Shown here: piece after piece, positions 3,691 through 36,513 of the stretch
Numbering within the stretch: the stretch's first letter is position 1
Layout of the letters: the number at the start of each line of letters is the position of its first letter
Origin: Candidatus Omnitrophota bacterium
GTDB taxonomy: Bacteria > Omnitrophota > Gorgyraeia > B26-G9
Length of the DNA stretch: 64,000 nt
NCBI GenBank assembly: GCA_018817585.1
Contig: JAHITE010000125.1
Coordinates: 12,580 to 76,579 of the forward strand
Reading direction: 5' to 3'
The notes under the pieces: model-generated
Databases searched by the model: none
Seen by the model: only the letters and a program-made list of their open reading frames with translations
Told to the model about the DNA's origin: nothing
Program-made: the position numbers and the translations under genes

Positions 3691-3695
3691 TCTGG

Positions 3696-4904: not shown

Positions 4905-4923
4905 AATATAGAGACTTTTGATT

Positions 4924-13649: not shown

Positions 13650-14010
13650 TTTGTAAATAATAAGGATTCCGAAAATATCTGCTAGGCCGCAGCTATTTCG
13701 GACTAAATTCGAGCAGGCTGACTTGACGTCGTGAAAAACACTCCGTAAGTCAGGCTCTCATTTAAAGCGCCGTTCAAAGATAAATTTTACCTTAAAGTTT
13801 GTTAAAGTCAGGATGCAAAGTTAAGAGGGCTAGAATAATCATTTTAGCGGGTTTGAAGCCTGATTTTGATAGGACTGGCAAAATCAGAGATTTATCCTCG
13901 GAGTCCCGCAGGATGCGGGACGAGAATGAGCAGAAATGATTGATTCTAGACCGTCGTTGACTAGCTGGGTACAAGATGACAGTGTGAATAATTTTAAAAG
14001 AGAGTAGCGC

Positions 14011-18586: not shown

Positions 18587-18589
18587 AAA

Positions 18590-19078: not shown

Positions 19079-19080
19079 AT

Positions 19081-20295
19081 ATGGATTTTAATTTAACAGA
19101 ATTTATTATAAAAAAAGCAAATCTCGCAGGCAAAGACGATAAAGATTTTTCCGTACGCGCGCGTTTCGGTTATTTGGAGGGCTGGATCAGTCTGGTGGTG
19201 AACTTTTTTATTTTTGCGCTTAAGTTTAGCATGGGAATGATCAGCGGCAGTATCAGTATTATTGCTGACGCGGTTCACACGATTTCCGATGTAGCGACTT
19301 CCGCGGTTGTGATCTGGGGATTTAAAATCGCTCAAAAACCAGCGGATAAAGACCATCCTTTTGGCCATGGACGGATGGAGGATATTGCTACTTTGATCAT
19401 TGCCGTTGTCTTGACTTTGGTTGGGCTTGAACTGTTGCATGGCGCGGTTTTAAGAATGTTTAAACCAGTCGCGGTTGCGGCAAATCCGTTATTTATAATT
19501 TTTCTAAGTATTACGGTAGTGATCAAAGAATGGTTAGCTAGATTTTCCTTTTATCTGGGACAAAAAATCAAATCGAAAACTTTAGCTGCTGATGCTTGGC
19601 ATCATCGCAGTGACGCGATTTCAACATTACTGGTAATTGTCGCGGTTTCTGGGGCAATGTTCAGGTTATTTTGGCTTGATGCCTTTTTTGGAGCAATGGT
19701 TGCTTTATATCTTATGTTTATGGGGATTCAGCTTGTCAGGGATTCGACATTTCATCTTTTAGGCAAAGCAGCCGATCAGGAATTAATTGCCGAGATTAAA
19801 AAAATTGCCTTGTCGGTTACCGGGGTAGAAGGCGTGCATGATATTATTGCCCATGATTATGGTCAGTTGAAAGCTATTTCCCTGCATGTGGAAGTAGACA
19901 TTACTCTGGATTCTGTGCGGGCGCACCAGATAGCTACTTCAGTTGAAACTTTGATCGCGAAAAATATTAAATCAAGTCCGATTGCGCATATTGATTTAAA
20001 ACGGATAACTCAGGAAAAAAAATCAGACGCGGCTAAAATGCTGGATCTGATTTTTAAAAAATATCCTGATGTGATAAATTTTCATAGTTTTGAATTGTTA
20101 AGCAATGAGAGCGGCGATTTTATGAACCTGCATGTTGTTATTTCCAAGTCGATGAACGTAGATCAGGCGCATAATTTAGAACACCAATTGCGGGAATCAT
20201 TGAATAGCGGTTTTAAACACAGAATAATTAATATACATATTGAACCTTGTGATTCAAAATGCGCGGTATGCCCATTGACGTGTAAAGATATTTAA
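19081..20295 (+). CDS. cation diffusion facilitator (CDF) metal efflux transporter with Cys-rich C-terminal extension
   Basis: 404 aa; TM motifs DAVHTISD and DAWHHRSDAIST (HxxxD metal sites), cytoplasmic CTD, extra tail CDSKCAVCPLTCKDI. Confidence 0.8.
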   Translation: MDFNLTEFIIKKANLAGKDDKDFSVRARFGYLEGWISLVVNFFIFALKFSMGMISGSISIIADAVHTISDVATSAVVIWGFKIAQKPADKDHPFGHGRMEDIATLIIAVVLTLVGLELLHGAVLRMFKPVAVAANPLFIIFLSITVVIKEWLARFSFYLGQKIKSKTLAADAWHHRSDAISTLLVIVAVSGAMFRLFWLDAFFGAMVALYLMFMGIQLVRDSTFHLLGKAADQELIAEIKKIALSVTGVEGVHDIIAHDYGQLKAISLHVEVDITLDSVRAHQIATSVETLIAKNIKSSPIAHIDLKRITQEKKSDAAKMLDLIFKKYPDVINFHSFELLSNESGDFMNLHVVISKSMNVDQAHNLEHQLRESLNSGFKHRIINIHIEPCDSKCAVCPLTCKDI

Positions 20296-20296
20296 A

Positions 20297-20360
20297 ACAG
20301 AAGACAGAAAACCGAAGGATGATGGACGATCGCTGCGCTAGGACGAAGGACGAGAAAAGC
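20297..20360 (+). repeat. short GGAYGA direct-repeat element, copy A
   Basis: agaagacagaaaaccga-(GGATGA)(GGACGA)-tcgctgcgcta-(GGACGA)(GGACGA); a near-identical copy lies at 45890-45955. Confidence 0.7.
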
Positions 20361-20475
20361 AGAAGACAGAAGAGGAAGATAAAAAATTTCTAAACTCTAC
20401 ATAAACTTAAATGACTAAATACAAAAAATATAAAAAATCGAGTGGAAAGTTATAAAGAACATTATCCGAATTGCT

Positions 20476-21576: not shown

Positions 21577-21604
21577 TTGACATAGGGAAAACGCATTGTA
21601 AAAT
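21577..21604 (+). promoter_or_regulatory. sigma70-type promoter for the hydrogenase operon
   Basis: TTGACA - 16 nt - TAAAAT about 50 nt upstream of the small-subunit start. Confidence 0.5.
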
Positions 21605-21651
21605 AAAAATAAGGATTTCATATCTAATAGGGGATTGATAAGGAGGGGATC

Positions 21652-22572
21652 ATGAAACTTACCCGCAGACAATTCCTCAAGATCTTTGGGGCTTCAGCTG
21701 TTGGCGCGGGGATTACTAGTTTGTATAATCCGGCATTGGTTGAGGCTTTAGCGGCAGACGATGGCAAGCCTCCGGTTATTTGGATTCAAGGAGCCGGATG
21801 TAATGGCTGTTCAGTTTCACTTTTAAATACTGTTCATCCGAAAATTGCTGAAGTTTTATTACATATTATAAGTTTAAGGTATCATCCTGCGTTAATGGCT
21901 GGGACAGGGAAAACTGCTTTTGATGTTATTTATGAAGTAGCCGAAGAGTTTAAGGGCAAATATATCGTTGTTCTTGAAGGCGGCATCCCGACAGCGGAAG
22001 ACGGGGCTTATTGCACTGTCGGTGAATATAATGGCCGTCATGTTAAATTAACTGATCTGATTGATTTTCTTGTACCTAATGCTGCTGCTTTGGTTGCCGT
22101 AGGCGCTTGTGCTGCTTTTGGCGGAATTCCTAAAGGCAAACCTAATCCTACTGGAGTTAAAGGTTTTGCTGAATACACTGGGAAAACTGTAGTTAATGTT
22201 TCCGGGTGTCCAGTACATCCTGATTGGATTGTCGGAACTCTAGTTCATGTGCTGCATTATGGGATGCCTGAATTGGATAAGCATAATAGACCAAAATTGT
22301 TTTATGGTAAAAATCTCCACGATAATTGTCCTAACTATTCCTATTTTGCTAAAGGTAAATTCGCGGAAAAATTAAGTGATGATGGATGTTTGGTGAATAT
22401 TGGCTGTAAAGGGCCAATGACTTATGCTGATTGTCCTCTCCGGCATTGGAATAGCGGAGTAAACTGGTGTATCGGATCAGGAACAGGATGTATTGCTTGT
22501 ACTGAGCCGAATTTTCCAGATGCTGCTTCGCAGATGTACGCTAAGTTACCTGATGACATGATTCCTAGCTGA
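21652..22572 (+). CDS. [NiFe] hydrogenase small subunit, Tat-exported
   Basis: 306 aa; twin-arginine signal TRRQFLK; proximal cluster motif GAGCNGCSVSLL; further Cys ligands GCPVHP, CKGPMTYADCP, CIGSGTGCIAC. Confidence 0.9.
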   Translation: MKLTRRQFLKIFGASAVGAGITSLYNPALVEALAADDGKPPVIWIQGAGCNGCSVSLLNTVHPKIAEVLLHIISLRYHPALMAGTGKTAFDVIYEVAEEFKGKYIVVLEGGIPTAEDGAYCTVGEYNGRHVKLTDLIDFLVPNAAALVAVGACAAFGGIPKGKPNPTGVKGFAEYTGKTVVNVSGCPVHPDWIVGTLVHVLHYGMPELDKHNRPKLFYGKNLHDNCPNYSYFAKGKFAEKLSDDGCLVNIGCKGPMTYADCPLRHWNSGVNWCIGSGTGCIACTEPNFPDAASQMYAKLPDDMIPS

Positions 22573-22601
22573 ATAGTTTGACAAGATAAAAGGATGCGGC
22601 C

Positions 22602-24014
22602 ATGGCTAAACAAACCATAAGTATTGATCCAGTTACCCGAATTGAAGGGCATCTTAAAATAGAAGTTGATGTTGATAATGGAAAAGTTATTGATGCTCGT
22701 TCTATTGGAACGTTGTTCAGAGGTTTTGAAACTATATTAAATGGTAGAGATCCGAGAGATGCCCAGATGATAACTCAACGTATTTGCGGAGTTTGCTCGA
22801 TCAGTCATGGGATTGCGGCTACGCTGAATCTTGATTCAGCGTTTAATGTAAGTCCGCCATCAAATGGGCGGATTGTTCGAAATTTAATTCTGAGTGGTAA
22901 TTATATTCAATCGCACATATTGCATTTTTACCATTTGGCTGCGCTTGATTTTGTTACCGGCCCGGATGTCGCTCCGTTTATTCCCAGATATAAAGGGGAT
23001 TACTTATTGCCTAAAAAGGTTAATGACGCGGCAGTTGAGCATTATATGCAGGCTTTGGATATGCGAATGAAAGCGCATGAATTAACCGCTTTGTGGTCAG
23101 GGAAAGTTCCCATGGCGCAGTCGATAACTCCCGGCGGAGTTTCGCAAAAAGTATCGGTTGATAGAATTGCCTCAGCTTTATGGAGAATTCGTGAGCTTAA
23201 AGATTTTGTGAAAAATGTTTATATTTCCGATGTTTTAGCGGTTGCTGATGTATATAAGGATTACGGGACTGTGGGTGTTGGTTATAAAAACTTTCTTTCT
23301 TATGGAGTTTTTGCCGAGAACAATGAAAAAACAGAGTTTTTATTTAAATCAGGAATCTATACTGCGGATATTGATTTGGAAATGAACGCGCAAAAGATTA
23401 CTGAAGATGTTGAATTTTCCTGGTATAAAAAAGAAATTGGCAGAAAACATCCTGCTGAAGGGCAGACTGACCCTGATCTGCACAAAGAAAATGCTTATTC
23501 ATGGGTAAAAGCGCCTCGTTACGATGGTATCCCTCACGAAGTCGGCCCATTAGCTAGAATGTGGATCAATGGAGATTATCGAAAAGGCGCTTCGCTTTTA
23601 GATCGTCATGCGGCGCGTGCTTTGGAAACTCTCAAAGTTGCTGAGGCTATGGAAAAGTGGGTATTGCAGTTAAAGCCCGGTGAGCCGGTTTTTACTGCTT
23701 TTGAAATACCGGTTAATGCGGAAGGAATGGGTTTGACTGAAGCCCCGCGGGGTGCCCTTGGCCATTGGATAAAAATCGAGAATAAAAAAATAGCTAATTA
23801 TCAGGCGGTAGTGCCTTCCACCTGGAATTTAAGTCCAAAAGATGAGGATTTTCAGCGTGGTCCGGTTGAGGAAGCATTGATTGGCTGCCCTGTGCCGGAT
23901 GCGGATAATCCAATAAACGTAGCAAGAATTGTTCGTTCATTTGATCCTTGCCTTGCTTGCGCAGTTCATTTGACAAAACCAAATGGGGAAATGAAGAAAT
24001 TTAGAGTTTGTTAG
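22602..24014 (+). CDS. [NiFe] hydrogenase large subunit
   Basis: 470 aa; N-terminal RICGVCSISHG and C-terminal DPCLACAVH Ni-Fe ligands with a short tail after His, the substrate for the maturation protease. Confidence 0.92.
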   Translation: MAKQTISIDPVTRIEGHLKIEVDVDNGKVIDARSIGTLFRGFETILNGRDPRDAQMITQRICGVCSISHGIAATLNLDSAFNVSPPSNGRIVRNLILSGNYIQSHILHFYHLAALDFVTGPDVAPFIPRYKGDYLLPKKVNDAAVEHYMQALDMRMKAHELTALWSGKVPMAQSITPGGVSQKVSVDRIASALWRIRELKDFVKNVYISDVLAVADVYKDYGTVGVGYKNFLSYGVFAENNEKTEFLFKSGIYTADIDLEMNAQKITEDVEFSWYKKEIGRKHPAEGQTDPDLHKENAYSWVKAPRYDGIPHEVGPLARMWINGDYRKGASLLDRHAARALETLKVAEAMEKWVLQLKPGEPVFTAFEIPVNAEGMGLTEAPRGALGHWIKIENKKIANYQAVVPSTWNLSPKDEDFQRGPVEEALIGCPVPDADNPINVARIVRSFDPCLACAVHLTKPNGEMKKFRVC

Positions 24015-24050
24015 AACTAGATAGTTTAATCTTAATAATTTGGGTGTTTT

Positions 24051-24503
24051 TTGTTTAAAAAAATAACAATATTGGGAATCGGTAATTTATTACTCAAAGA
24101 TGAGGGTGTGGGGATTCACGCTATTGAGGCATTAAGAAAAGAATCGCTGCCTGATAATGTTGAGCTTGTGGATGGAGCGGCGTCAGGATTTGATTTATTG
24201 CCAATAATCGAGCAATGTGATAAGTTGATTGTAATTGACGCGATTAAGATTGCTGAACAGCCGGGAACAATATATCAATTCGACCCCAAGCAGATTGATG
24301 TTAAGCGAGATTTAAATATGTCTCTGCATGATGTTGACTTTTTTCAAGTGCTTGAATTTGCCAATAAACATCGGTGGTTGCCAGAGATATTGATGATCGG
24401 GATTGTTCCTAATGAGATTTGTTTAAGTATGGATTTATCTGATATTATTAAAGGGAAAATACCGAGGATTGTGTATTTAGTTAAGCAAGCAATAGAGAAT
24501 TAA
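24051..24503 (+). CDS. hydrogenase maturation endopeptidase (HyaD/HybD family)
   Basis: 150 aa; ILGIGNLLLKDEGVGIHAIE N-terminus typical of the family. Confidence 0.85.
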   Translation: MFKKITILGIGNLLLKDEGVGIHAIEALRKESLPDNVELVDGAASGFDLLPIIEQCDKLIVIDAIKIAEQPGTIYQFDPKQIDVKRDLNMSLHDVDFFQVLEFANKHRWLPEILMIGIVPNEICLSMDLSDIIKGKIPRIVYLVKQAIEN

Positions 24504-24540
24504 ACTTATATAACTATTATCTTAACAGTTTGAGAAGGGA

Positions 24541-25005
24541 GTGTTTTTTTTGAAAAAAATAATTATTTCAGGATTCATTTTGGGGGTTTTATTGATGTTT
24601 GATTATAATTATGCTTTGGCTCAACAAGATTCTCCAGCTAAAGATATTGCTTCTGAATATGTCGGGGTAGCGCAATGCGCTGTCTGTCACCCCGCGGAAT
24701 ATCAGGAGTATAACAAGCGTAAATTTAAGAAGGCCTGGCGGGTGTTAAAAATGCGTGGGGCGGAAAAAAATGAAATATGCTTAAAATGTCATGTGACTGG
24801 TTTTGGAAAAGGCGGATTTATTAGTGAAGAGCAAACCCCGCATTTAGTTGGTAAACAATGCGAAGCATGCCATGGTCCTGGTGGTAAGCATATAAGTAAT
24901 CCCTCTGACCAGAATTTTAGAAAACAGTTAAAAGTGGTTAATAAGCAAAACATATGTATAGAATGTCATACTTGTATGACAACTCATAAAACAAATGATT
25001 TTTAA
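24541..25005 (+). CDS. periplasmic tetraheme c-type cytochrome (cytochrome c3-like)
   Basis: 154 aa; signal peptide; four CxxCH motifs (CAVCH, CLKCH, CEACH, CIECH). Confidence 0.8.
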   Translation: MFFLKKIIISGFILGVLLMFDYNYALAQQDSPAKDIASEYVGVAQCAVCHPAEYQEYNKRKFKKAWRVLKMRGAEKNEICLKCHVTGFGKGGFISEEQTPHLVGKQCEACHGPGGKHISNPSDQNFRKQLKVVNKQNICIECHTCMTTHKTNDF

Positions 25006-25039
25006 TGAATTTTTAGTAATGAAAATATATGAAAATATA

Positions 25040-25068
25040 TTGACAGGAGTATTGATTTATGTTAAATT
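25040..25068 (+). promoter_or_regulatory. strong sigma70-type promoter of the OMP gene
   Basis: TTGACA - 17 nt - TAAATT; about 230-nt 5' UTR; RBS AAGGAGG before ATG 25302. Confidence 0.5.
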
Positions 25069-25301
25069 AGCACTATATGGAAAAATGCCGAGATTGAATA
25101 TTTTTTATAAGTAGCGGCTGAATTCATCATATATAACTTTAATCTGGCGACAAGGAGGTGGGGGAAAATAGAGCCTGAAGTTATAAGCATATGGTGATAA
25201 TGGAATAAGATAGAAATAACCTGGGCAACTATAGACAAACCTATAACTATAGACCTAGTTGGCCAAATAAATTTAAATTATTTTCTAAGGAGGAAAATAT
25301 A

Positions 25302-26621
25302 ATGAAGAGAATGCTAACAATTCTTTTAGCAGTAAGCATGATTGCGCTTGTGGCAATGCCTGCTTTTGCTGAAGTACAGAATATTAAAGTAAATGGCGGA
25401 GTTAAAATCACTGGTATTACTAGAGAAGGCTTTATTAATAGAGGACCAGCAGGATCTACTACCGGATACCCGGAAGCAGACTCGAGAGATTGGTACAACA
25501 CTGTTACTACTCTTGGTGTCGCGGCAGATCTTACTGACAATGTTTCAGCCACAATGGTATTAGGCAATGAAAGAGATTGGGGACTAGCTACTGCAACTAC
25601 TACTACTACTGGTGATGCTACTGCTGTTACTGTTTTTTCTTCTTACATTACTATGGAAGAAATGCTTTATTCAGCTTTAACAGTTAAAGCTGGTAGAATG
25701 CCGCTTGCTATTGCTGATAAATTAATTGTGGGTGATGGAACTGGTAATATTAATAGTCTTAATAGCGGTAACTTATCAGCCCAGACTGAATTTGATGCGA
25801 TCGTTGGTATTTTAGATTATGATCCATTAACAGTTATTTTGGGTACTGTAAAAGTATCAGATGAAGCACAGTCTGCTTCTGATGACGTGGATCTATATTT
25901 GGTTGATGGTATCTACAAGTTTGAAGATGACATGAACACAGTATTAGATGCTTATTTTGGAACAGCTCATTACAGTAGTCCTGGTGCTGCAACATTAACT
26001 GGTCCTGGTGCAAACAGCACAAGAACAGCTGATGTTAATGTTTTAGCAGCTGTATTGACCATGGAGCCAGCAGAACGCGTAACAGCTAAATTCGGTATTG
26101 GATATCAGTTTGGTGATTACCAGAAGACTGCAACAGCTAGCCGCGGTCTTGACGCAATGGCATTAGATCTTGGTGTAAATTACGCGATTGATAATGAATA
26201 TGCGCCTGTTGTTGGATTAAAATATGTATACCGTTCAGGTGATGACCAGGCAACTGGAGCTAATGCTGACTATACTGGATGGTTAGGTCTTTATGAACAA
26301 CAAATAAATGGTGCGATTTTTGATCCAAATACAAACATCAGCGCTTTTGCTTTAACAGCAACTGCAGTACCTGCTGATAGACTTACTATTGGTTTAGAGT
26401 ATTGGATGTTTACATTAGACGAATCATTGAAAACTGCTACTACACAATGCAGTACAAGTGATGAAGCTGGATCAGAGATTGATCTTACAGCATCTTATGC
26501 TTATACAGAAGATGTTAAGATTGGGCTTGGTCTTGGTTGGTTCTTCCCTGGGGATTATTATAAATCAGGGTTTGATGAAACAGCTATGCAGGCTTTAGTT
26601 CAAGTTGCTGTAAAGTTCTAA
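25302..26621 (+). CDS. outer-membrane beta-barrel protein (putative porin), highly expressed
   Basis: 439 aa; signal peptide MKRMLTILLAVSMIALVAMPAFA; alternating beta-strand pattern; Thr-rich loop; C-terminal VAVKF aromatic terminus; biased codon use. Confidence 0.55.
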   Translation: MKRMLTILLAVSMIALVAMPAFAEVQNIKVNGGVKITGITREGFINRGPAGSTTGYPEADSRDWYNTVTTLGVAADLTDNVSATMVLGNERDWGLATATTTTTGDATAVTVFSSYITMEEMLYSALTVKAGRMPLAIADKLIVGDGTGNINSLNSGNLSAQTEFDAIVGILDYDPLTVILGTVKVSDEAQSASDDVDLYLVDGIYKFEDDMNTVLDAYFGTAHYSSPGAATLTGPGANSTRTADVNVLAAVLTMEPAERVTAKFGIGYQFGDYQKTATASRGLDAMALDLGVNYAIDNEYAPVVGLKYVYRSGDDQATGANADYTGWLGLYEQQINGAIFDPNTNISAFALTATAVPADRLTIGLEYWMFTLDESLKTATTQCSTSDEAGSEIDLTASYAYTEDVKIGLGLGWFFPGDYYKSGFDETAMQALVQVAVKF

Positions 26622-26635
26622 GTTAATTAAATAAA

Positions 26636-26672
26636 AAGCCCTCGCTTCTTTTGGAAGCGGGGGCTTTTTTTG
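26636..26672 (+). terminator. rho-independent terminator
   Basis: AGCCCTCGCTTC-tttt-GGAAGCGGGGGCT followed by TTTTTTT. Confidence 0.85.
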
Positions 26673-26722
26673 CTAAAATATTTTCATTTTATTGAACTAT
26701 CGCGATATTAGGAATTTTATGC

Positions 26723-26751
26723 TTGACACTATCGACGTTTTTGAGTAATAT
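26723..26751 (+). promoter_or_regulatory. sigma70-type promoter of the chemotaxis operon
   Basis: TTGACA - 17 nt - TAATAT about 60 nt upstream of the mcp start. Confidence 0.5.
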
Positions 26752-26810
26752 GAACAATATCGCAACTTATGATTTCGCAGTTTGTTCAGTAAAAATATTA
26801 GGGGGGAGAA

Positions 26811-28520
26811 ATGTTGAAATTTTTGCCAAAAAATCTAGAGTTTAAGATTATTTTTTCTGTGGGCATAGCGTTATTTGTTGTATTAGGCATAAGTGCGGTA
26901 ATAAATATTTCAACCCAGTCTCGGATTCTGATTGAACAAGAAAAGTCGCTTGCTTCTATTTTAAGTGATAGTATTCTTAATGGTATTTTCTATCCCATGC
27001 TTGGTGGAGATCAGGCACTTGTCCAGACGGTCTTTAATTATTTTGCTTCACAAAAGCAAATAGATATGCTTTTTTTAGCGAATAATGAAGGAGAAATCAA
27101 GCGGTGCACATCTAATGAGTATTTTGGGAAAAAGATTGATTTTAGGGGTATTATTAGTGAAATTGAGTCTAAGGATAAAAGCACTAAGTTGCAAAAATTT
27201 AAAACAAGTAGCAGAAATCCAAATAAGAAAGTTTTTGCGACATATATCCCTGTTTATAATAATCCAGAGTGTAATTCTTGCCATGGTAAAAACACAAAAA
27301 TTTTAGGCCTTCTGGGGGTTGAACTGGAGTGGGATAATGTAAAAAAAGCAACTGCTGATACCTTAAACAGGGTATTGTTGATTGCATTGATTAGTATTTT
27401 TTTAATCAGTATTTTAGTTATTATTTTGCTTAGAAAACTAGTTATTAAACCAATTAATATTTTAGTAAAAGCGAGTGAGCCGGCAGTAAGAGGTGATTTA
27501 ACCATAACAGTAGATAATAATTCTGAGGATGAAATAGGTAAGCTCACAGTAGCTTATAACGCGATTATTAAAAATCTTCATAATATGGTAAGCCGGATTA
27601 AAGAATTAGCGGGAAAAGTTTCTAGTTTTGCCCAAGAGATTTCTACTTCTTCTAAAGAGATGAATGCTTCAACTCAGGAAATTTCTTCAACAATTCAGAA
27701 AATTGCTAAGGGGGTTACCACTCAGGCAAAACGAGTTGAAGATACCTCTCAGCTAATGGAAGGTTTGTCTGATTCAGTTCGTCGGGTTGCTGATAACGCG
27801 ACTTCCGCGACAAAGTCTTCAGAGAAGTCGCTTGAACAGGCGCAAAGCGGTGGATACGCTACTGCTGAAGCTGTAGAAAAAATGAATAAAATAACAACAA
27901 CAGTTTCCAATGCCGCGGCAGTAATCTCCTCATTAGGTGAAAAGTCTCAGCAAATCGGTCAGATTACTGAAACAATTACAAATATTGCTGATCAGACAAA
28001 TCTGCTTGCTTTAAATGCCGCTATTGAAGCAGCTAGAGCTGGAGATGCGGGTAGAGGGTTTGCCGTAGTTGCTGAGGAAGTTAGAAAGCTAGCTGAAGGA
28101 TCTGCTGAGGCAGCACGCCGAATTGGAAGTCTTATAAAGGGAATTCAGGTTGAAACTCCTAAAGCCGTAAGCTCGATAGAAGCTGGAACAAAAGAAGTTG
28201 CTGAGGGCGCTTTGATTGTTTCCCGGGTTTCAGATGCTCTTGCGGAAATTATTAACGCGGTCAGGACATCAGCGACTATGGTAGATGAAATTACTGAAGC
28301 TACTCAACATCAATTGGCTGCTTCAGAAAAAATAGTTAAAGCTGTTGATGAAGTAGCAGTTGTCGCAGAGGAATCAGCTTCCGCGACTGAAGAAGCTTCA
28401 AGTTCTGCCGAAGAACAAACTGCTTCAATGGAAGAGTTGACTGCTTCTGCTGAAGAATTAGCTCGTCTAGCTTTGGATCTCCAAGAACTTGTTGATAAAT
28501 TTCAACTAAATAAGAAATAA
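26811..28520 (+). CDS. methyl-accepting chemotaxis protein with a c-type heme-binding periplasmic sensor domain
   Basis: 569 aa; TM1, periplasmic domain of about 150 aa containing CNSCH (CxxCH), TM2, HAMP; signalling domain [34 protein letters not shown]. Confidence 0.92.
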
Positions 28521-28563
28521 AAATTGACTATTAATTTGTGTATTCAGTCAGGAGGCATAAAAA

Positions 28564-29067
28564 ATGTCTGAAACAAAAAAGGGCAGTGGGGAAATTCAGC
28601 TTGTTGTTTTTAAAATCGGAGAAGAAGAATTTGGAGTGGAAATTAACCAGGTCCGGGAAATTGTTAAGCTGGTTTCAATTACTCGCATGCCAAAGTCCCC
28701 TGCATTTATTGAAGGTGTTGTCAATTTAAGAGGTCAAATTATTACGGTTATTGACTTATCAAAAAGATTGGATTTGCCTTCCGCGGGGCGCAGTGAATCC
28801 ACAAGGATTATGGTTGTAGAAATCGGGGAAAGCATAGTGGGAATGATCGTTGATTCTGTTTCAGAAGTTTTAAGATTATCAGAAAGTAATATAGAAGACA
28901 CTCCTTCGCTTATAGAAACTGAGGTACATGAAAGATATTTGCGCGGTGTAGGTAAAAGCGAAGACAGATTGCTGATATTGTTGGATTTAAACGAGGTGTT
29001 AAGTATTGACGAAGTAAAACATGTAGCTAAACAGGATATTTTAAAAGATGCTATAGAAAAAAAATAG
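28564..29067 (+). CDS. cheW: chemotaxis coupling protein CheW
   Basis: 167 aa; LVVFKIGEEEFGVEINQVREIV CheW fold. Confidence 0.9.
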   Translation: MSETKKGSGEIQLVVFKIGEEEFGVEINQVREIVKLVSITRMPKSPAFIEGVVNLRGQIITVIDLSKRLDLPSAGRSESTRIMVVEIGESIVGMIVDSVSEVLRLSESNIEDTPSLIETEVHERYLRGVGKSEDRLLILLDLNEVLSIDEVKHVAKQDILKDAIEKK

Positions 29068-29096
29068 AGTAACTGAAAAGGAAGGAGCGTTTTAAG

Positions 29097-29471
29097 ATGG
29101 GAGTTAAAGTTTTGGTTGTTGATGATGCTGTTTTCATGCGTAAGATGATTGGAGATATTCTTAAGAAAGAAGGATATGAGGTTGTGGGCGAAGCAGAAAA
29201 CGGGAAAGAGGCAGTTGCTAAATATTTAGAGCTTAAGCCTGATCTGGTTACCATGGATATTGTTATGCCGAAGGTTGGAGATATCGATGGAATCGGAGCT
29301 GTTAAAGAAATAATGGAAAAAGATGAAAAGGCAAAGATTCTGATGGTAAGTGCTATGGGGCAGCATGCTTTAGTGGTAGAGGCTATTCAGTCAGGAGCTA
29401 AAGATTTTGTTACTAAACCTTTTCAGCCTTCGCGAGTACTTGAAGCGGCAAAACGTGTGCTTGAAAGTTAA
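29097..29471 (+). CDS. cheY: chemotaxis response regulator CheY
   Basis: 124 aa; VLVVDDAVFMRKMI, phospho-Asp in DIVMP, Lys in VTKP. Confidence 0.9.
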   Translation: MGVKVLVVDDAVFMRKMIGDILKKEGYEVVGEAENGKEAVAKYLELKPDLVTMDIVMPKVGDIDGIGAVKEIMEKDEKAKILMVSAMGQHALVVEAIQSGAKDFVTKPFQPSRVLEAAKRVLES

Positions 29472-29529
29472 GTACTTAAAACACCACTAATTTTTCTTAA
29501 ATAATTAAATTAAGTAAGGTGTTTATAAT

Positions 29530-30156
29530 TTGTTAAATAAAAAAATTACTTTAAATGCCCAGGAGAAAGATCTTCTCAAGGAAATAGCTAATATCTGCGC
29601 GGGAAATGCAGCGACTTCTCTTTCTCAGTTATTGAGCAAAAAAATAGAAATGAATGTGCCGAATGTTCATTTTATTCCGATAGCTGAAGTGCCAAAAGCT
29701 GTGGGCGGCGCTGATACATTGGTGGTAAGTGTTGTGTTTCAGGTCTTTGGAGCTGCTCCGGGAATTGTTTTATTATTGTTTTCGCAGTCTGATGCCAAAA
29801 CCTTAGCAGGAATTCTTAATGGGGAAACAGCTAGAAATGGACTTTTAACTGAGATGGATCAGTCTGCCATAAAGGAGGCTGGAAGTATTCTGGCTGCTGC
29901 TTATCTAAATACTCTTTCCGCGGTGACTAAAATAGGGCTTATCCCATCTACCCCCGGCATTTTTATTGATATGGCTGGGGCGCTGGTTGATTACATATTA
30001 ATAGAACTCAGTGCTGTTACAGAATACGCATTATTGCTTGATTCAGTATTTGTTGATGCTGAAAAAAGTGTCCAAGGTCATTTCTTTTTATTGCCAAATT
30101 CAGGAAGTTTTGAATTAATTTTAAAAGCGATTGGAGAATCAGTTAATGGATCTTAA
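29530..30156 (+). CDS. cheC: CheY-P phosphatase CheC
   Basis: 208 aa; two E-x2-N motifs (LKEIANICAGNAATSL; IKEAGSILAAAYLNTL). Confidence 0.8.
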   Translation: MLNKKITLNAQEKDLLKEIANICAGNAATSLSQLLSKKIEMNVPNVHFIPIAEVPKAVGGADTLVVSVVFQVFGAAPGIVLLLFSQSDAKTLAGILNGETARNGLLTEMDQSAIKEAGSILAAAYLNTLSAVTKIGLIPSTPGIFIDMAGALVDYILIELSAVTEYALLLDSVFVDAEKSVQGHFFLLPNSGSFELILKAIGESVNGS

Positions 30157-30652
30157 TGAATATAACCCACCTAAAGAAATCCATGTTGGTATGGCAGATA
30201 TGAAAGTTGCCCAAGCTCCGATTGTGCTTACTTCTCTGGGTTTAGGTTCTTGTGTTGGAATAGTTTTATATTACGCGAAAACCCAAATTGGCGGACTTGC
30301 TCATATCATGCTTCCAGATGTTGATTTAGTTAAGAATAGAACTAATCGCGCGAAATTCGCGAATACAGCGATTCCTGATTTGCTGGAGAAATTAGAGAAA
30401 ATGGGAGCGGAAAGAAGGTTTATAAAAGCAAAAATTATGGGTGGAGCCCATATGTTTGGTTTTGCTAAAACTAATAAAGTTTTTAATGTGGGCATCCGAA
30501 ATATTGAAAAAGTGAAAGATATTCTTAAAGATTTGCGAATTAGATTGGTTGCTGAAGATGTGGGCGGTTCCTACGGACGGTCTTTATATTTTTATCTTTC
30601 TACTGGTGAAGTTCGTGTTAGAACTATAAATCATGGAGAAAGAATAATATGA
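30146..30652 (+). CDS. cheD: chemoreceptor glutamine deamidase CheD
   Basis: ORF-track start 30131 is TTG; the ATG at 30146 has a GGAGAA RBS; GLGSCVGIVL with catalytic Cys and MLPD motif. Confidence 0.85.
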   Translation: MDLNEYNPPKEIHVGMADMKVAQAPIVLTSLGLGSCVGIVLYYAKTQIGGLAHIMLPDVDLVKNRTNRAKFANTAIPDLLEKLEKMGAERRFIKAKIMGGAHMFGFAKTNKVFNVGIRNIEKVKDILKDLRIRLVAEDVGGSYGRSLYFYLSTGEVRVRTINHGERII

Positions 30653-31689
30653 TTAGGGTTCTAGTTGTTGATGATTCAGCCTTGATGCGCAGGAAGATAA
30701 CAGAGATATTAGCATCAGATAAGGAAATTGATGTTATTGATTTTGCCAAAACAGGTGCTGACGCGATTAAAAAAGTAGTTCAATTAAAACCGGATGTTAT
30801 TACCATGGATATTGCCATGCCTGATATTGATGGATTAACCGCGCTTACATATATAATGAACGAAGTTCCCACGCCAGTTGTAATTATTAGCGCGAATGTC
30901 GCGCCAGGAAGCGCTAACGCGTTAAGAGCCGCTGAATTGGGAGCCGTGGATACTATTCTTAAACCTAGTGGTGAGATTTCAGTAGATATTGATATTCTTA
31001 GTAAAGAAATTATTAGTAAAGTTAAAACAGCAAGCCGGGTAGATGTAAATAGAGTGCAAGCTTTTTTAAATAGAATAATACAGCCTTCGGGAGTCTCGGG
31101 GGGGGGAAGTTCAAATTTAAAGCATATTGTTGCTATTGGCGCTTCAACCGGAGGGCCGAAAGCGATAAAAGAAATACTTCCTTACTTATCCCCTGATTCA
31201 GAGGCGGCCTTTTTAATTGTTCAGCATATGCCAGCGGCTTTTATTAAGTCAATGGCTCAACGAATGGATTGGATTTCCAAAATTAAAGTAAAGGAAGCTC
31301 ATCATGGAGATATTATAAAGCAGGGAGTGGCTTATCTTGCTCCCGGAGATTTCCATATGATTGTTTCGATGGATAACAATATTCCTACTATTAGACTTAA
31401 TACTGATCCTAAGGTGCATAGTGTTAGACCATCAGTAAGTGTTATGATGAACTCTGCAGCTGAGTGCTTTGGCAATAAAACGATTGGAGTTTTACTTACG
31501 GGAATGGGGCAAGATGGGGTGGAAGGAATGAGAAATATTAAAAGAGTTGGCGGAATCACTTTAGCTGAAGATGAGTCTACTTGTGTTGTTTTTGGAATGC
31601 CGCGCGTTGCTATACAAGAAGGTGTTGTAGATAAAGTTATTCCTCTTGGATATATGGGTATTGAAATAATGAAGCAGATTAGCATATAA
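30649..31689 (+). CDS. cheB: chemotaxis methylesterase/response regulator CheB
   Basis: 346 aa; receiver VLVVDDSALMRR...DIAMP plus methylesterase GASTGGPKAI and GMGQDG motifs. Confidence 0.92.
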   Translation: MIRVLVVDDSALMRRKITEILASDKEIDVIDFAKTGADAIKKVVQLKPDVITMDIAMPDIDGLTALTYIMNEVPTPVVIISANVAPGSANALRAAELGAVDTILKPSGEISVDIDILSKEIISKVKTASRVDVNRVQAFLNRIIQPSGVSGGGSSNLKHIVAIGASTGGPKAIKEILPYLSPDSEAAFLIVQHMPAAFIKSMAQRMDWISKIKVKEAHHGDIIKQGVAYLAPGDFHMIVSMDNNIPTIRLNTDPKVHSVRPSVSVMMNSAAECFGNKTIGVLLTGMGQDGVEGMRNIKRVGGITLAEDESTCVVFGMPRVAIQEGVVDKVIPLGYMGIEIMKQISI

Positions 31690-31704
31690 GAAGGATTTTA
31701 CTTT

Positions 31705-33717
31705 ATGGGAGTAGAGCAATATAAGGATTTATTTGTCGCTGAATCTGAAGAACATCTGCAGATTATTAATAATTCTGTGCTTAGCCTTGAAAAAGACCCG
31801 GCAAATATAACTATTTTAAATGAAATTTTCCGCAGCGCGCATACCTTAAAAGGTATGTCCGCGACAATGGGATTTGAATCGTTAACTCGGCTTACCCATA
31901 AAATGGAAGATGTTCTTGATATATTCCGTAGTCAAAAAATTCCAGTTACAACAGAAATAGTAGATAAGCTTTTTAGTTGTCTGGATATTCTTCAAATGCT
32001 GCTTGAGGAAATTAAAACAGGAGAAGATCTTAATTTAGATATAGAGTCTATTATTCTGCAGCTTCAAAGTGTCACGCCTAATATTTCGGCAGCTGGTTTA
32101 GATAGAGCAGCAGCTGAAAAAAAAGAGCTGTTGATAACAGCTCTGGAAAAAGAGCACCTTCTTAATGCTCTTAAAAATAAAGATATTAGGATTTATAAAA
32201 TTAATATTTTTCTTAGTCAAGATTGTCAATTAAAATCTGTTCGTGCTTTTATGGTTTTTAATAAATTGAATTCAATCGGAGAAATAATCAAAGCAGTACC
32301 TTCAATAGAAGATTTAGAGTCAAATCATTTTGGCTTATCTTTCTGTTTGTTGCTTATGACAAATAGCCTGGCTAAAAAGTTAGAACAAATATTATATAAT
32401 GTTATGGAAGTTGAAAAGGTGTCGCTGACTCAAATAAAAGATATTAACGATTTACCGCTGGAAAAAACAGAAGAACTGAAAGTTAAAGATAATGCTCAGA
32501 AAGTTCCTTCTGATGTTGACTTATCTCAGCAAAAAGATTTAGCTAAGCAATTTGGTTTTAAAAAAATTCAAAGCATTAGAGTTAGTACTCAACGTTTGGA
32601 TAAAATGATGAATTTTGTGGGGGAATTAGTAATTTCTAAAATTCGTTTAATGCAGATAGCCAAGACTCATCAATTAAAGCCTTTAAGTGAAATATTAACC
32701 AATATTGATCGTTTGACCAGTGACTTGCAGGATGAAGTTATGCAGGCTAGACTTATTCCCATGGCTCAGGTCTTTGACCGTTTTCCGCGAATGGTGAGGG
32801 ATTTAGCCCGAAGTGAAAAAAAACAAATAAATTTTGATGTTTCGGGAGGAGAAATAGAACTCGATAGAACAGTGCTTGATGAGATAGCAGATCCCTTGGT
32901 TCATCTTCTGCGCAATAGCGTTGATCATGGGATAGAATTGCCTAATGTTCGTAAGGAAAATAATAAAAACCCGGTTGGGACTATAAAGTTGAGCGCGTAT
33001 AGAGAAAGAACCTTTGTTTTAATTGAAGTATCTGATGATGGAAAAGGCATCGATCCTGAAACTATTCGTGTAGTTGCTTTAAATAAAGGATTTATGACTG
33101 ACGATGAACTCGCGAAACTTAATGATAGAGATATTCTTAACCTTATAACAATGCCTGGTTTTAGTTCAACTTCAGAAATAACTGATACTTCTGGTCGGGG
33201 TGTGGGCATGGATGTTGTAAAGATGAAGATTGAGGCTCTTGGCGGAAGCTTAGTGTTTGACTCTGAATTGGGAAAAGGAAGTAATTTTAAACTAAAGCTG
33301 CCGCTTACAGTAGCGATAATTCGGGCAATGTTGGTGGAAATAAACAAGGAAATATACGCGACTCCAATTGGCAGTATTGTAGAAGCAGTAAAGGTTTCTA
33401 AAAAAAGAATCAAGCATATAGAAAAATTCGAAGTAATTAATTTGCGGGATGAAGTACTTCCGCTTGTAAGATTGGAAAAGATTTTAGGTGTGCCTGCTCG
33501 AGCGGAAGAAATCCCTAGGGAAGAGATTTCTATAGTAGTTGTTGATAATGCCGGGAAAAAGGCAGGATTAGTTGTTGATCGGGTGGTGGGGCAGCAAGAA
33601 GTTGTAATCAAGACGGTGGGTTCTTTATTAAAAGGAATAAAAGGATTCTCTGGGGCAACAATTTTAGGTGATGGAAGCGTGGCTTTGATTCTGGATGTTG
33701 CTTCATTAGTTGGCTAG
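31705..33717 (+). CDS. cheA: chemotaxis histidine kinase CheA
   Basis: 670 aa; HPt HTLKGMSATMGF, dimerisation domain, HATPase GRGVGMDVVK, C-terminal CheW-like domain. Confidence 0.95.
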   Translation: MGVEQYKDLFVAESEEHLQIINNSVLSLEKDPANITILNEIFRSAHTLKGMSATMGFESLTRLTHKMEDVLDIFRSQKIPVTTEIVDKLFSCLDILQMLLEEIKTGEDLNLDIESIILQLQSVTPNISAAGLDRAAAEKKELLITALEKEHLLNALKNKDIRIYKINIFLSQDCQLKSVRAFMVFNKLNSIGEIIKAVPSIEDLESNHFGLSFCLLLMTNSLAKKLEQILYNVMEVEKVSLTQIKDINDLPLEKTEELKVKDNAQKVPSDVDLSQQKDLAKQFGFKKIQSIRVSTQRLDKMMNFVGELVISKIRLMQIAKTHQLKPLSEILTNIDRLTSDLQDEVMQARLIPMAQVFDRFPRMVRDLARSEKKQINFDVSGGEIELDRTVLDEIADPLVHLLRNSVDHGIELPNVRKENNKNPVGTIKLSAYRERTFVLIEVSDDGKGIDPETIRVVALNKGFMTDDELAKLNDRDILNLITMPGFSSTSEITDTSGRGVGMDVVKMKIEALGGSLVFDSELGKGSNFKLKLPLTVAIIRAMLVEINKEIYATPIGSIVEAVKVSKKRIKHIEKFEVINLRDEVLPLVRLEKILGVPARAEEIPREEISIVVVDNAGKKAGLVVDRVVGQQEVVIKTVGSLLKGIKGFSGATILGDGSVALILDVASLVG

Positions 33718-34354
33718 ATTAAATGGGGTTTATGTTTTATTAGGAGGATTAAAAATGGCTGAGTTAACAAGTGTTCAACTCGATGCTTTAAAAGAGATGG
33801 GTAACATTGGGGCGGGGAACGCGGCAACTTCGCTTGCTCAGTTAATTGGGGAAATGGTTAGTAGTAGCGTTCCTGAAGTAAATGTAATGCCTATTGCATC
33901 TGTTGCTCAAGCTCTGGGGGGAGAGGAAAAACAGGTTTATATTATTTATTTGGAAGTTGAAAAAGATATGCAAGGAACAATGCTGACTATTTTCTCAGAG
34001 GAGACAGCCATCTTCTTTGTTAAAAAACTATTAGGTTCGATTGAAATCGATATGACATCAGATATTGCTCAATCAGCATTAAAGGAAGCAGGATCTATTC
34101 TTTGCGGATCTTATTTAAGCGCGCTTAGTCAGCTTGTTAACATGAGTTCTGTGGCTACGGTTCCAGCGATGGCTTTTGACATGCTGGGGGCTATGCTTGA
34201 TTTTGTTTTAGTGGAGATTGGACAAATAGCGGATGAAGTTTTTTTAGTGAATACAGAGCTGTATGTATCTCAAAAAAAACTGGAATGTTCTCAACTTTTT
34301 TTACCAAAACCAGATACTTTAGAAAAAATACTTACTTCACTCGGAATGATGTGA
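33710..34354 (+). CDS. second CheC/CheX-family phosphatase
   Basis: 214 aa; first motif LKEMGNIGAGNAATSL intact; second site (KEAGSILCGSYLSAL) lacks the Asn. Confidence 0.7.
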   Translation: MARLNGVYVLLGGLKMAELTSVQLDALKEMGNIGAGNAATSLAQLIGEMVSSSVPEVNVMPIASVAQALGGEEKQVYIIYLEVEKDMQGTMLTIFSEETAIFFVKKLLGSIEIDMTSDIAQSALKEAGSILCGSYLSALSQLVNMSSVATVPAMAFDMLGAMLDFVLVEIGQIADEVFLVNTELYVSQKKLECSQLFLPKPDTLEKILTSLGMM

Positions 34355-34362
34355 GAGAAAAT

Positions 34363-36513
34363 ATGGATAATGTCGGAGATGATTTAATTTTCGCGCTGGA
34401 TATCGGAACGCGCAAGGTAGTGGGTATTATTGCCAAGAAACGAGATGATGTGATCCATATTTTAGATGTGGAAAAAGTCGAACATCAAACTAGAAATATG
34501 CTTGATGGGCAGATTCATAATATTAATGAAGTGGCAAAAATAGTAAAAAATATAAAAGAGACATTGGAAAAAAGAGCGGGACAGTCTTTATCTAAGGTAG
34601 GAGTTGCTGTAGCCGGGAGAGCGCTTAAGACCGTAAAGGCAAAAGTTTCAAAAGAGCTTTCTTTGAATAATGAAATTACTGAAGGTGATGTGCTAAATTT
34701 AGACTTAGAAGCGGTTAGCAGTATTTTAAAGAACGCGGATAGTGATGGTCATGAGGATTTTTATTGTGTAGGTTACAGCGTTGTTTGTTATCAGCTTGAT
34801 TCTGAGGTAATCGGCGACTTAGTAGGGCATTTTGGTAAGAGTATGGGCGTTGAGGTTATAGCTACATTCTTACCGCGAGTAGTTTTGGATAGTATGTTAA
34901 GTGTGTTGCGCAGGGCAGGCCTTGAAGTAAGTAATCTTACTCTTGAGCCGATCGCGGCTTTAAACGCGATTATTCCTAAAGATATAAGACGCTTAAATTT
35001 AGTCCTTTTAGATATAGGGGCAGGGACTTCTGATGTAGCTCTTACTAAAGACGGTAGTGTGTTTGCCTATGGCATGGTTCCTGAAGCGGGTGATGAAATC
35101 ACGGAGTTAATCTGCGAGAAATTCATTCTTGATTTTAATACTGCTGAAAATGTGAAAAGACAGATATCTATAAAAGAAAAAGTTTCATTTAAAGATATAT
35201 TAGGCAAAGAACATAATCTAGCATCAGTAGATATTATTAATATGATTAAGCCTAGAGTCGCAAAGCTGGCTGAGTCCATAGCCAATCGAGTGCTTGAGCT
35301 TAATAAAAAAGTTCCGAATGCTGCTATTTTAGTTGGAGGGGGAAGCTTGACTCCTCTTTTTGATCAACAACTTTCTCTTGCTTTTCCTCTTGATTTATCA
35401 AATATAGGTGTACGTTTGCCGGAAATGGTTTCAAATATTATAGATAAATCGGGTAAACTAAATAGTCCGGAAATGGTTACTCCCCTAGGGATTTGTATAA
35501 TGACGGCTAATTCTACGGGTTTGAAATTTCTGGAAATATATGTTAATGAAAAAAGAGTTAATGTATTAGATATGCAGCAAAGTCTGGATGTTTTGAGCGC
35601 GCTTGTGGTTGCCGGTGTTAATAAAATGAAGTTATATGGCAGAATAGGAAGGGCTATTTGTGTTGAAGTTAATGGTAAATTAACAGTAATAAAAGGTGAA
35701 ATGGGCAAGCCTGCTGAAATAAAGCTGAACGACCAATATGCTGACCTTACAACAAAAATAAAAAGTGGAGATAAAATATCTTTTAAAGACGCGGTTGACG
35801 GTTTAGACGCGCAGGCAATTATCGGCGATATTGTTGGGATTAAGCCTTTAAATATTAAGTTGAATGATCAATCTATTAAAATTATGCCCAAGGTTACGAT
35901 TAATGGAGATCCGGCGGATCTTTCTGCTAATTTACCGGATAGAGCAGTTATTCAGATTATGCCGACAGTTACAGCCAGGGATGTTTTAGAGTTAATGAAT
36001 CTTAATCTCGAAGAATTGCAGGTAAGAGAGATAGTGGTTAGAGTCAATAAAGAACCTAAGGTTATATCGCAAAGTAGTTTTTCGCTGCTTATTAATGGAC
36101 TGAAAGCGGGATTATCTTCTAATTTATCAGAAGGCAGTGTTATTGAATTTGAGAAAGATAAACATATATTTTATAAGATTAAGGATATTGTTGAAATGCC
36201 TGCTAGCGCAGAAGATGTAGAGATTATTTTGAATGGACAGAAGCATGTTTTAAAAGGAGCTCCAGGCAAAATTTATATGAACGGTCAGCTTGTAGGCCCA
36301 GAGGAGTTTATTATTGATCGAGCAGAGATTATTACAAGCGCAGGAGGAACTTTGCCGCCAACAGTTGTGCAGATCTTAGAGTGCCTGCCTATAAGTATTG
36401 AAGATCAAAGAGGTAAACAATTGAAAATTATGGTTAACGGCAATCCTGGAGGATTTACAACCCCACTTTATAATGGTGCGAATATTAGCATAGATTTTTT
36501 AGACAGGTATTAA
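34363..36513 (+). CDS. actin-like (FtsA/PilM/MreB-fold) ATPase fused to about five tandem beta-grasp-like repeats
   Basis: ORF-track start 34285 overlaps cheC2; the ATG at 34363 gives MDNVGDDLIFALDIGTRKVVGII (actin-fold phosphate-1), later LLDIGAGTSDVALT (phosphate-2) and VGGGSLTPL (adenosine motif); C-terminal ~390 aa made of ~75-aa repeats with an I-x-V-NG-x core. Confidence 0.5.
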   Translation: MDNVGDDLIFALDIGTRKVVGIIAKKRDDVIHILDVEKVEHQTRNMLDGQIHNINEVAKIVKNIKETLEKRAGQSLSKVGVAVAGRALKTVKAKVSKELSLNNEITEGDVLNLDLEAVSSILKNADSDGHEDFYCVGYSVVCYQLDSEVIGDLVGHFGKSMGVEVIATFLPRVVLDSMLSVLRRAGLEVSNLTLEPIAALNAIIPKDIRRLNLVLLDIGAGTSDVALTKDGSVFAYGMVPEAGDEITELICEKFILDFNTAENVKRQISIKEKVSFKDILGKEHNLASVDIINMIKPRVAKLAESIANRVLELNKKVPNAAILVGGGSLTPLFDQQLSLAFPLDLSNIGVRLPEMVSNIIDKSGKLNSPEMVTPLGICIMTANSTGLKFLEIYVNEKRVNVLDMQQSLDVLSALVVAGVNKMKLYGRIGRAICVEVNGKLTVIKGEMGKPAEIKLNDQYADLTTKIKSGDKISFKDAVDGLDAQAIIGDIVGIKPLNIKLNDQSIKIMPKVTINGDPADLSANLPDRAVIQIMPTVTARDVLELMNLNLEELQVREIVVRVNKEPKVISQSSFSLLINGLKAGLSSNLSEGSVIEFEKDKHIFYKIKDIVEMPASAEDVEIILNGQKHVLKGAPGKIYMNGQLVGPEEFIIDRAEIITSAGGTLPPTVVQILECLPISIEDQRGKQLKIMVNGNPGGFTTPLYNGANISIDFLDRY

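Follow-up and report, generated by a model that had tools for sequence, protein, structure and literature searches.

A heme-c chemoreceptor linked to a periplasmic [NiFe] hydrogenase in Omnitrophota: a candidate relay for hydrogen sensing

Heme-c Chemoreceptors and Indirect Hydrogen Sensing

GSU0582 and GSU0935 are heme-c chemoreceptors of Geobacter that have been described as redox-linked spin-state sensors, in which reduction converts a high-spin heme to a low-spin, Met-ligated one (PMC8396549). Their family has recently been reclassified as 'sCache_heme' (PMC12889525), and the physiological signal of these methyl-accepting chemotaxis proteins (MCPs) is debated, with redox state set against nitric oxide, NO (PMC8396549, PMC12889525). 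The subject here is an MCP of this kind from a Candidatus Omnitrophota bacterium, encoded within a 64,000-nucleotide stretch of contig JAHITE010000125.1 (assembly GCA_018817585.1; the whole stretch is called the window), where genes for a [NiFe] hydrogenase and a tetraheme cytochrome lie upstream of the receptor gene and a set of chemotaxis genes lies downstream. A first-pass annotation had guessed from this single locus that redox or energy taxis is linked to periplasmic H2 oxidation; gene order conserved among distant Omnitrophota now supports this guess.

Other described systems share single aspects of this arrangement. Desulfovibrio vulgaris DcrA, which has a c-heme, and Aer, which has FAD, would resemble the window MCP in that a cofactor reports redox or oxygen status and no nutrient is bound (PMC2886117); Aer is cytoplasmic and FAD-based, unlike the window MCP. 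The HoxBC/HupUV hydrogenases with the HoxJ kinase offer a conceptual likeness in the indirect detection of H2, as there a signalling protein receives its redox signal from the hydrogenase. HoxBC/HupUV are cytoplasmic group 2b enzymes which control transcription, whereas in the window an MCP would be fed through a cytochrome by a group 1 enzyme that is catalytic and periplasmic; the likeness is one of analogy only, with no homology between the sensors. The only organism in which H2 taxis itself has been demonstrated is Methanococcus maripaludis, an archaeon, with no receptor known (PMC3817446).

The Heme-c Chemoreceptor

The window MCP has two transmembrane (TM) segments at approximately residues 13-33 and 187-209 (hydropathy peaks 7-37 and 180-221), a K-rich, cytoplasmic N-terminus, and a HAMP domain directly after TM2; residues 34-186 are therefore placed in the periplasm. 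The sole CxxCH motif of the protein, CNSCH (C154, C157, and H158), lies in this periplasmic segment 29 residues before TM2, in agreement with the distance of about 30 residues first read from the sequence. In overall layout the protein resembles GSU0582 and GSU0935, being a two-TM MCP with a periplasmic domain of ~150 aa, one CxxCH near the C-terminal end of that domain, and a HAMP and MCP signalling output.

An exhaustive HMMER search for homologues of the sensor domain, run against 1.84 billion cluster representatives (E<=1e-3), returned 100 sequences, all of them N-terminal sensors of MCPs and histidine kinases. The CxxCH is present and aligned in 97 of the 100, shows no variation in alignments A1 and A3, and is thus not a chance motif; some homologues carry a second CxxCH ~38 residues upstream. 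A word-indexed search with MCP residues 1-218 returned nothing, a false negative in light of the 100 relatives found by HMMER and of a 100% identical database protein recovered with the full-length MCP, and the single sensor sequence gave no meaningful match against the PDB by phmmer. When 35 sensor-domain homologues were combined into a profile (A1), it matched 3B42 (GSU0935) with E=2.5e-13 (positions 8-137 against 4-127) and 3B47 (GSU0582) with E=1.6e-11, in both cases over nearly the whole domain. In the alignment Met63, Cys154, Cys157, and His158 of the window MCP correspond to Met60, Cys140, Cys143, and His144 of GSU0935; the ligand identities are those reported for GSU0935, where Met60 is the distal ligand and binds on reduction (PMC8396549). 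Met63 is part of a YPM motif, and its counterpart Met60 is the first Met of GYMMKGD in 3B42; a Met occupies this column in 72 of 76 orthologues. PF21563 matches every one of 35 family members (best E=1.5e-11), many orthologues scoring above threshold; the window MCP itself scores 20 bits, under the 27-bit cut-off.

Through AlphaFold2 modeling with a 26-sequence alignment the sensor is predicted with a pLDDT of 89 and a pTM of 0.82 (pLDDT 50 in a single-sequence run). The model features an sCache fold, which agrees with the recent reclassification of the family, and places the CxxCH in a short helix (152-158) between β3 and β4; the top Foldseek matches are the WalK Cache domain, GSU0935, KinD, DctB, and CitA. 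By profile, ligand alignment, and predicted fold the sensor is assigned to the GSU0582/GSU0935 heme-c family (PF21563 / sCache_heme), as the first-pass annotation had implied; it is predicted to carry one covalent c-heme with His158 as the proximal and Met63 as the distal ligand. The window sensor is ~20% identical to its Geobacter counterparts, and its signalling domain, judged from a C-terminal arm of ~155 residues, is assigned to class 44H as opposed to 40H in Geobacter. The signalling domain also contains four methylation-consensus sites, so methylation-based adaptation is expected.

Linkage of Hydrogenase and Chemoreceptor

Metagenome contigs were searched with the sensor-domain alignment, and 29 loci were returned. 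A tetraheme cytochrome homologue is found immediately upstream of the sensor gene in 23 of these; the hydrogenase large subunit (LSU) gene lies 1.6-3.1 kb upstream in all 14 cytochrome-bearing loci with at least 3.1 kb of upstream sequence, and one further cytochrome-bearing locus ends within the protease gene. The six loci that carry no cytochrome are of histidine-kinase type or of undetermined type; histidine-kinase-type loci of the sensor family (L016, L020, L026, L033, and L036) have no hydrogenase nearby. The linkage is also seen in genome loci L001, L002, and L004, and in intermediate relatives with 57-68% MCP identity (L041-L043). Close relatives with 85-93% amino-acid identity are fully syntenic with the window (Omnitrophota metagenome-assembled genomes JAHITY010000101 and JAZDHZ010000037, and one JGI contig). 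At an 80% identity threshold the linked MCPs group into 10 lineages; they belong to two deep clades, and their lowest identity is 43%. A hydrogenase is thus located upstream of every MCP orthologue with enough flanking sequence, approximately 20 loci; in contrast, no hydrogenase neighbour has been reported for the Geobacter receptors. Neither DcrA nor Aer is known to be part of such a conserved cluster of hydrogenase genes.

Two arrangements of the locus are observed. Type A, which the window shares with relatives at 57% identity or more, has the order small subunit (SSU)-LSU-protease-cytochrome-Alginate_exp barrel-MCP-cheW-cheY-cheC-cheD-cheB-cheA-cheC-FtsA-like-topA, with no cheR. Type B (43-48% identity) has hypF on the opposite strand and then SSU-LSU-protease-hypA-tatA-tatC-cytochrome-MCP, followed by unrelated housekeeping genes; on one contig of this type, 1.87 Mb long, the che genes are grouped ~30 kb from the MCP. 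This group has the order pilin-cheY-cheC-cheA-cheC-FtsA-like-ComFB-cheR-cheY-cheD-cheB-cheX-cheW. Gaps between cytochrome and MCP in type B range from 14 to ~390 nt, several being under 75 nt; the short gaps (14-75 nt) are compatible with co-transcription. Furthermore, L004 and L028 carry a cheW gene inserted ahead of the cytochrome, and the cytochrome gene is tandem-duplicated in L004, L010, and L022. The adjacency has survived many such local rearrangements, which argues for selection rather than inertia.

Locus L042, the only type A relative with no tetraheme cytochrome, also encodes a second MCP of 600 aa immediately upstream of its SSU gene (3236-5038); this protein has a different sensor and no CxxCH.

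Organization of the Locus

All genes from 19 kb to 39 kb of the window are on the + strand, and topA is the next gene after the FtsA-like gene that closes the che unit. The features of the region are listed below by window coordinates.

21577-21604, +: promoter-like site TTGACA-16-TAAAAT (11/12) before the SSU gene, in the era-SSU gap; a consensus match only, and the best + strand match of the region
21652-22572, +: [NiFe] hydrogenase small subunit, 306 aa (Pfam Oxidored_q6 and NiFe_hyd_SSU_C)
22602-24014, +: [NiFe] hydrogenase large subunit, 470 aa (NF033181, PDB 5jsu)
24051-24503, +: hydrogenase maturation endopeptidase, HyaD/HybD/HycI family (PF01750 E=1e-23; TIGR00072 131 bits, cut-off 47)
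24541-25005, +: predicted periplasmic tetraheme cytochrome c, c554/c7-like, 154 aa, with signal peptide (Cytochrome_C554 E=2e-14)
25040-25068, +: promoter-like site before the barrel gene (consensus match)
25302-26621, +: outer-membrane beta-barrel, Alginate_exp family (PF13372 E=4e-11)
26633-26672, +: intrinsic terminator 3' of the barrel gene (17-bp stem, dG -26.7 kcal/mol, z -5.4, then a U-run)
26723-26751, +: promoter-like site TTGACA-17-TAATAT before the MCP gene (consensus match only)
26811-28520, +: MCP, 569 aa, TM1-sCache_heme sensor-TM2-HAMP-44H-type signalling domain (HAMP and MCPsignal)
26910-27368, +: periplasmic heme-c sensor domain of the MCP, residues 34-186 (Met63 at 26997-26999; CNSCH at 27270-27284)
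28564-29067, +: cheW (PF01584 E=6e-39)
29097-29471, +: cheY (PF00072 E=2e-29)
29530-30156, +: cheC, CheY-P phosphatase (PF04509; NF041093 E=6e-42)
30131-30652, +: cheD, receptor deamidase (PF03975 E=9e-35)
30649-31689, +: cheB, receiver and methylesterase (PF01339 E=3e-63)
31705-33717, +: cheA (domains Hpt-P2-dimerisation-HATPase-CheW)
33710-34354, +: second cheC (PF04509; NF041093 E=5e-43)
34363-36513, +: FtsA/PilM-like actin-fold protein, 716 aa (this start is confirmed by a 100% identical database protein, P0101)

The gaps before the SSU, barrel, and MCP genes hold the best promoter-like matches on the + strand; promoter-like matches overall are not above chance (38 found against 49.6 expected), and only their intergenic placement is suggestive. 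Because of these gap sites and the terminator at 26633-26672, the region is read as three adjacent transcription units in the Omnitrophota chromosome, namely hydrogenase-cytochrome, barrel, and MCP-che-FtsA-like. An Rfam search of the window found no RNA families. Elsewhere in the window, a 618-aa open reading frame (ORF) at 50311-52167 has no significant Pfam match.

The Hydrogenase

The hydrogenase is predicted to be a soluble, Tat-exported enzyme of the group-1 periplasmic type that oxidises H2. The SSU has the N-terminus MKLTRRQFLK, in which TRRQFLK is the twin-arginine (Tat) motif, and has no C-terminal membrane anchor; the Tat signal is matched weakly by PF10518 and TIGR01409, and the N-terminus aligns with the signal peptide of HysB from D. 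vulgaris Hildenborough (DvH). The best PDB matches of the SSU are the [NiFeSe] small subunits of D. vulgaris and Desulfomicrobium baculatum (2wpn, E=9e-90). The subunit contains 12 Cys and the His of an HxxC motif; the Cys of VNWC occupies the alignment column of the fourth medial-cluster ligand of [NiFeSe] enzymes and, by comparison with the structures from D. gigas and Dm. baculatum, presumably makes this cluster a [4Fe-4S] one.

In the LSU the metal-binding motifs are intact, with RICGVC at residues 60-65 and DPCLACAVH at 448-456; a tail of 14 aa follows His456, the aligned His at which mature PDB chains stop. The tail, LTKPNGEMKKFRV, is conserved in all relatives with the consensus L(T/I)KPNGEMKKFRV, and the length of 470 aa is conserved across the clade. 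The Tat export, intact ligand motifs, and tail reported by the first-pass annotation are thus all borne out, as is its HyaD-type protease, which matches HycI/TIGR00072. The LSU aligns with PDB 5jsu (E=4e-147) and scores 686 bits with NF033181 (cut-off 600); against PDB references its bit scores are 494 for the DvH [NiFeSe] enzyme, 391 for D. fructosovorans, 308 for Hyd-2, and 261 for Hyd-1. A true [NiFeSe] enzyme with selenocysteine (Sec) was considered and rejected, the Ni ligand being Cys450 here and Cys in 21 of 21 relatives as well. By sequence the hydrogenase is placed as a coherent Cys-type sub-clade within the [NiFeSe]-like clade, and most probably belongs to HydDB group 1a; the periplasmic class expected earlier is therefore upheld.

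The closest described enzyme is HysAB of DvH and Dm. baculatum, which is the best PDB and NCBIfam match for both subunits and shares the Tat signal, the lack of a cytochrome b anchor, C-terminal processing, and the extra VNWC Cys at the medial cluster. The window enzyme differs in that Cys replaces Sec in DPCxxC, and in that its neighbouring cytochrome is c554-like as opposed to type I c3. The LSU is also shorter (470 as against ~500-510 aa), as ~28 aa of a loop present in DvH HysA are missing at residues 325-329 and there is no N-terminal lipobox extension. These two differences, together with the [NiFeSe]-like clade being already the shortest of group 1, account for the short subunits that had been noted at first; the compact subgroup suggested alongside corresponds largely to a known short type, the [NiFeSe]-like clade, less one loop.

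A protein with a NikR C-terminal domain is encoded on the same contig ~10 kb upstream of the window start (L039, 1-212); this nickel-responsive regulator may be relevant to the nickel supply of the hydrogenase.

The Tetraheme Cytochrome and the Outer-Membrane Barrel

The cytochrome contains four CxxCH motifs, at residues 46, 80, 107, and 139. Its top family is Cytochrome_C554, followed by c7, and its best PDB match is Nitrosomonas cytochrome c554 (1bvb, E=5e-8). The four hemes foreseen for a cytochrome c3 are thus present, however the assignment to class III c3 is rejected as PF02085 is unmatched; the protein has four hemes like c3 but belongs to another family. The c554-like cytochrome may nonetheless have a role equivalent to that of c3 for Desulfovibrio hydrogenases.

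The gene after the cytochrome was anticipated to encode an outer-membrane beta-barrel, and the Alginate_exp match agrees. This porin-like barrel gene is equipped with a promoter-like site of its own and with a strong AAGGAGG ribosome-binding site, and a strong terminator follows it. The barrel is kept between hydrogenase and MCP throughout the type A clade at 45-67% identity, and a distant homologue is found within the hydrogenase cluster of L004. The barrel could conceivably be related to the cytochrome, as one half of a porin-cytochrome pair. In L004 two tatA copies flank the barrel gene (12177-14519), and their overlapping 73 residues are identical; this repeat may have arisen by recent insertion or duplication, or be an artefact of assembly. 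The same locus has ~1.9 kb past the MCP gene (18490-20402) with no ORF of at least 70 aa.

A siroheme-dependent heme pathway is encoded at 55278-60716 of the window (HemB, a radical-SAM/SPASM protein, two NirD/L-like proteins of AhbA/B type, and HemL), followed by TatC; these genes could provide the module of hydrogenase, cytochrome, and MCP with heme c and with Tat export. In L037 heme synthesis genes and a cytochrome c assembly gene stand directly after the che cluster.

Chemotaxis Genes and the FtsA-like Protein

The order cheW-cheY-cheC-cheD-cheB-cheA-cheC downstream of the MCP gene is as the first-pass annotation gave it, save that the 716-aa FtsA-like gene had been missed. All components of a methylation-dependent chemotaxis set are present in the window except CheR; the earlier reading that the operon has no cheR extends further, as neither the window's ORFs of 100 aa or more nor the 10 kb preceding the window contain a match to CheR (PF01739, PF03705). 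A cheR gene is presumably present at another place in the genome; in the distant relative L037 cheR is located within the che cluster.

An FtsA/PilM-like gene follows cheA-cheC in all Omnitrophota che clusters examined, even at 45% identity (the window, L008, L037, L038, and L041-L043). The protein has an N-terminal FtsA/PilM-like actin fold (PDB 7q6g, E=4e-15), and its C-terminal ~300 aa give only faint matches to ThiS/TGS beta-grasp domains; more than 7000 homologues exist, annotated variously as 'rod shape-determining protein' or 'FtsA'.

Proposed Input and Output of the Receptor

Heme cannot bind H2, therefore any dependence of the receptor on H2 would be indirect. It is hypothesized that the MCP reads the redox poise set by H2 oxidation, a form of energy taxis reporting H2 availability, and this explanation is considered to stand about midway between doubtful and likely. 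The more specific proposal of a dedicated three-part H2-sensing relay in Omnitrophota, from hydrogenase to c554-like cytochrome to the heme of the sCache_heme MCP and on to a Che signal, is put forward more tentatively, at somewhat less than even confidence. In such a relay the hydrogenase would oxidise H2 and reduce the tetraheme cytochrome, and the redox poise of the cytochrome would set the state of the MCP heme, either via equilibration or through direct electron transfer. Reduction would switch the heme spin state and Met ligation as in GSU0935 and the sensor would move; the signal would then pass from TM2 through HAMP to CheA, CheY, and the CheC phosphatases, so that motility is biased, with adaptation via CheB and CheD and a CheR encoded elsewhere. 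The sequences themselves show the gene identities, the topology of the receptor, its membership of a family with conserved heme ligands, and the conserved neighbourhood of hydrogenase, cytochrome, and MCP. In the scheme above we infer that heme is attached and that electrons flow from cytochrome to MCP, as well as the direction of the response and the organelle that it acts on, which may be flagella or type IV pili.

Several observations weigh against a relay of this kind. Co-transcription of hydrogenase and MCP in the window is rejected in view of the terminator at 26633-26672; L042 keeps the order hydrogenase-outer-membrane protein-MCP but has lost the cytochrome; and the distal Met is replaced by Leu in L043 and a few other orthologues. 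The synteny is confined to one phylum, and may partly reflect shared descent. From the hydrogenase side, locus L006 (67% LSU identity) has no cytochrome or MCP downstream, and both are likewise absent downstream in the distant locus L007; the link is therefore specific to the MCP-bearing clade and not universal.

NO, carbon monoxide (CO), and O2 are classical inhibitors of [NiFe] hydrogenases, and the main rival explanation is that the MCP heme senses these gases directly and steers cells away from hydrogenase-poisoning conditions, with the adjacency reflecting a shared anoxic, H2-using lifestyle and not electron flow between the two. CO and NO bind both GSU0582 and GSU0935, displacing the distal Met (PMC8396549), and a 2026 preprint describes a TM-HAMP-linked sCache_heme protein that binds NO with high affinity; its argument that signalling-fused members of the family are NO sensors speaks against a redox input (PMC12889525). 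The orthologues in which the distal Met is absent would have an open coordination site, and the MCP would form a transcription unit separate from the hydrogenase in the window. However, direct gas sensing leaves unexplained why 23 of 29 loci keep a small tetraheme cytochrome gene just ahead of the sensor gene, in some cases in two copies and in some with a gap of no more than 14-75 nt, and the Met ligand is kept in nearly all orthologues, as in the redox-switching GSU0935; for these reasons direct gas sensing is considered unlikely, though it is the strongest competitor to a redox-poise input.

A further alternative concerns the output of the pathway and not its input, and is compatible with the redox-poise explanation: the Che-type pathway may steer type IV pili or another envelope process, such as attachment to a host or partner, with the heme-MCP gating this process by redox state. 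No flagellar genes were found in the 64-kb window, where genes of the type IV pilus or type II secretion system type are present at 2595-5769, 9960-11036, and 14892-15902; these comprise a pair of ORFs with weak prepilin N-methylation motifs and three family-less ORFs after them, a PilT/T2SSE-type ATPase, and a prepilin peptidase. The FtsA/PilM-like protein is a constant member of the che cluster, and in L037 cheY comes after a pilin gene; the main survey of Omnitrophota covers T4aP and Tad pili with no mention of flagella or chemotaxis (PMC10066038). Against a pilus output stands the full swimming-type adaptation set (CheB, CheD, two CheC, and a 44H MCP with methylation sites), and the window covers a small part of the genome; steering of pili is accordingly held to be a doubtful, if reasonable, prospect.

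The least likely explanation is a purely historical linkage, in which common descent within one phylum has left the genes side by side and the signal sensed by the MCP has no relation to hydrogen metabolism; the separate promoter-like sites and the terminator between units, the two hydrogenase loci with no MCP, and the histidine-kinase-type family members away from any hydrogenase are in its favour, but it is improbable given that adjacency holds in every MCP orthologue with enough flank at 43-100% identity and outlasts gain or loss of tat and hypA, insertion of barrel or cheW, duplication or loss of the cytochrome, and fusion to the che operon, when neutral synteny seldom outlasts such divergence and reshuffling.

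Significance

The component families of the locus are all known: a group 1 [NiFeSe]-like hydrogenase, a c554-like cytochrome, a GSU0935-type MCP, and a Che system containing CheC and CheD. Nothing relevant was found in the full-text library searched on a hydrogenase-cytochrome-heme-MCP module or on chemotaxis in Omnitrophota; the conserved linkage is the main new result. The closest relatives of the genome come from deep groundwater metagenomes (MM_PC naming scheme), from an environment of the kind covered by a study of deep oligotrophic groundwater (PMC8275790); H2 may be a principal energy source in deep groundwater. The module provides a specific, biochemically testable hypothesis for H2-linked taxis in bacteria and for the input of this receptor family, and it can be addressed in vitro with three soluble periplasmic components. 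If the relay is true, it would be the first identified hydrogen-taxis receptor system in bacteria and would supply a physiological input for the GSU0582/GSU0935 family.

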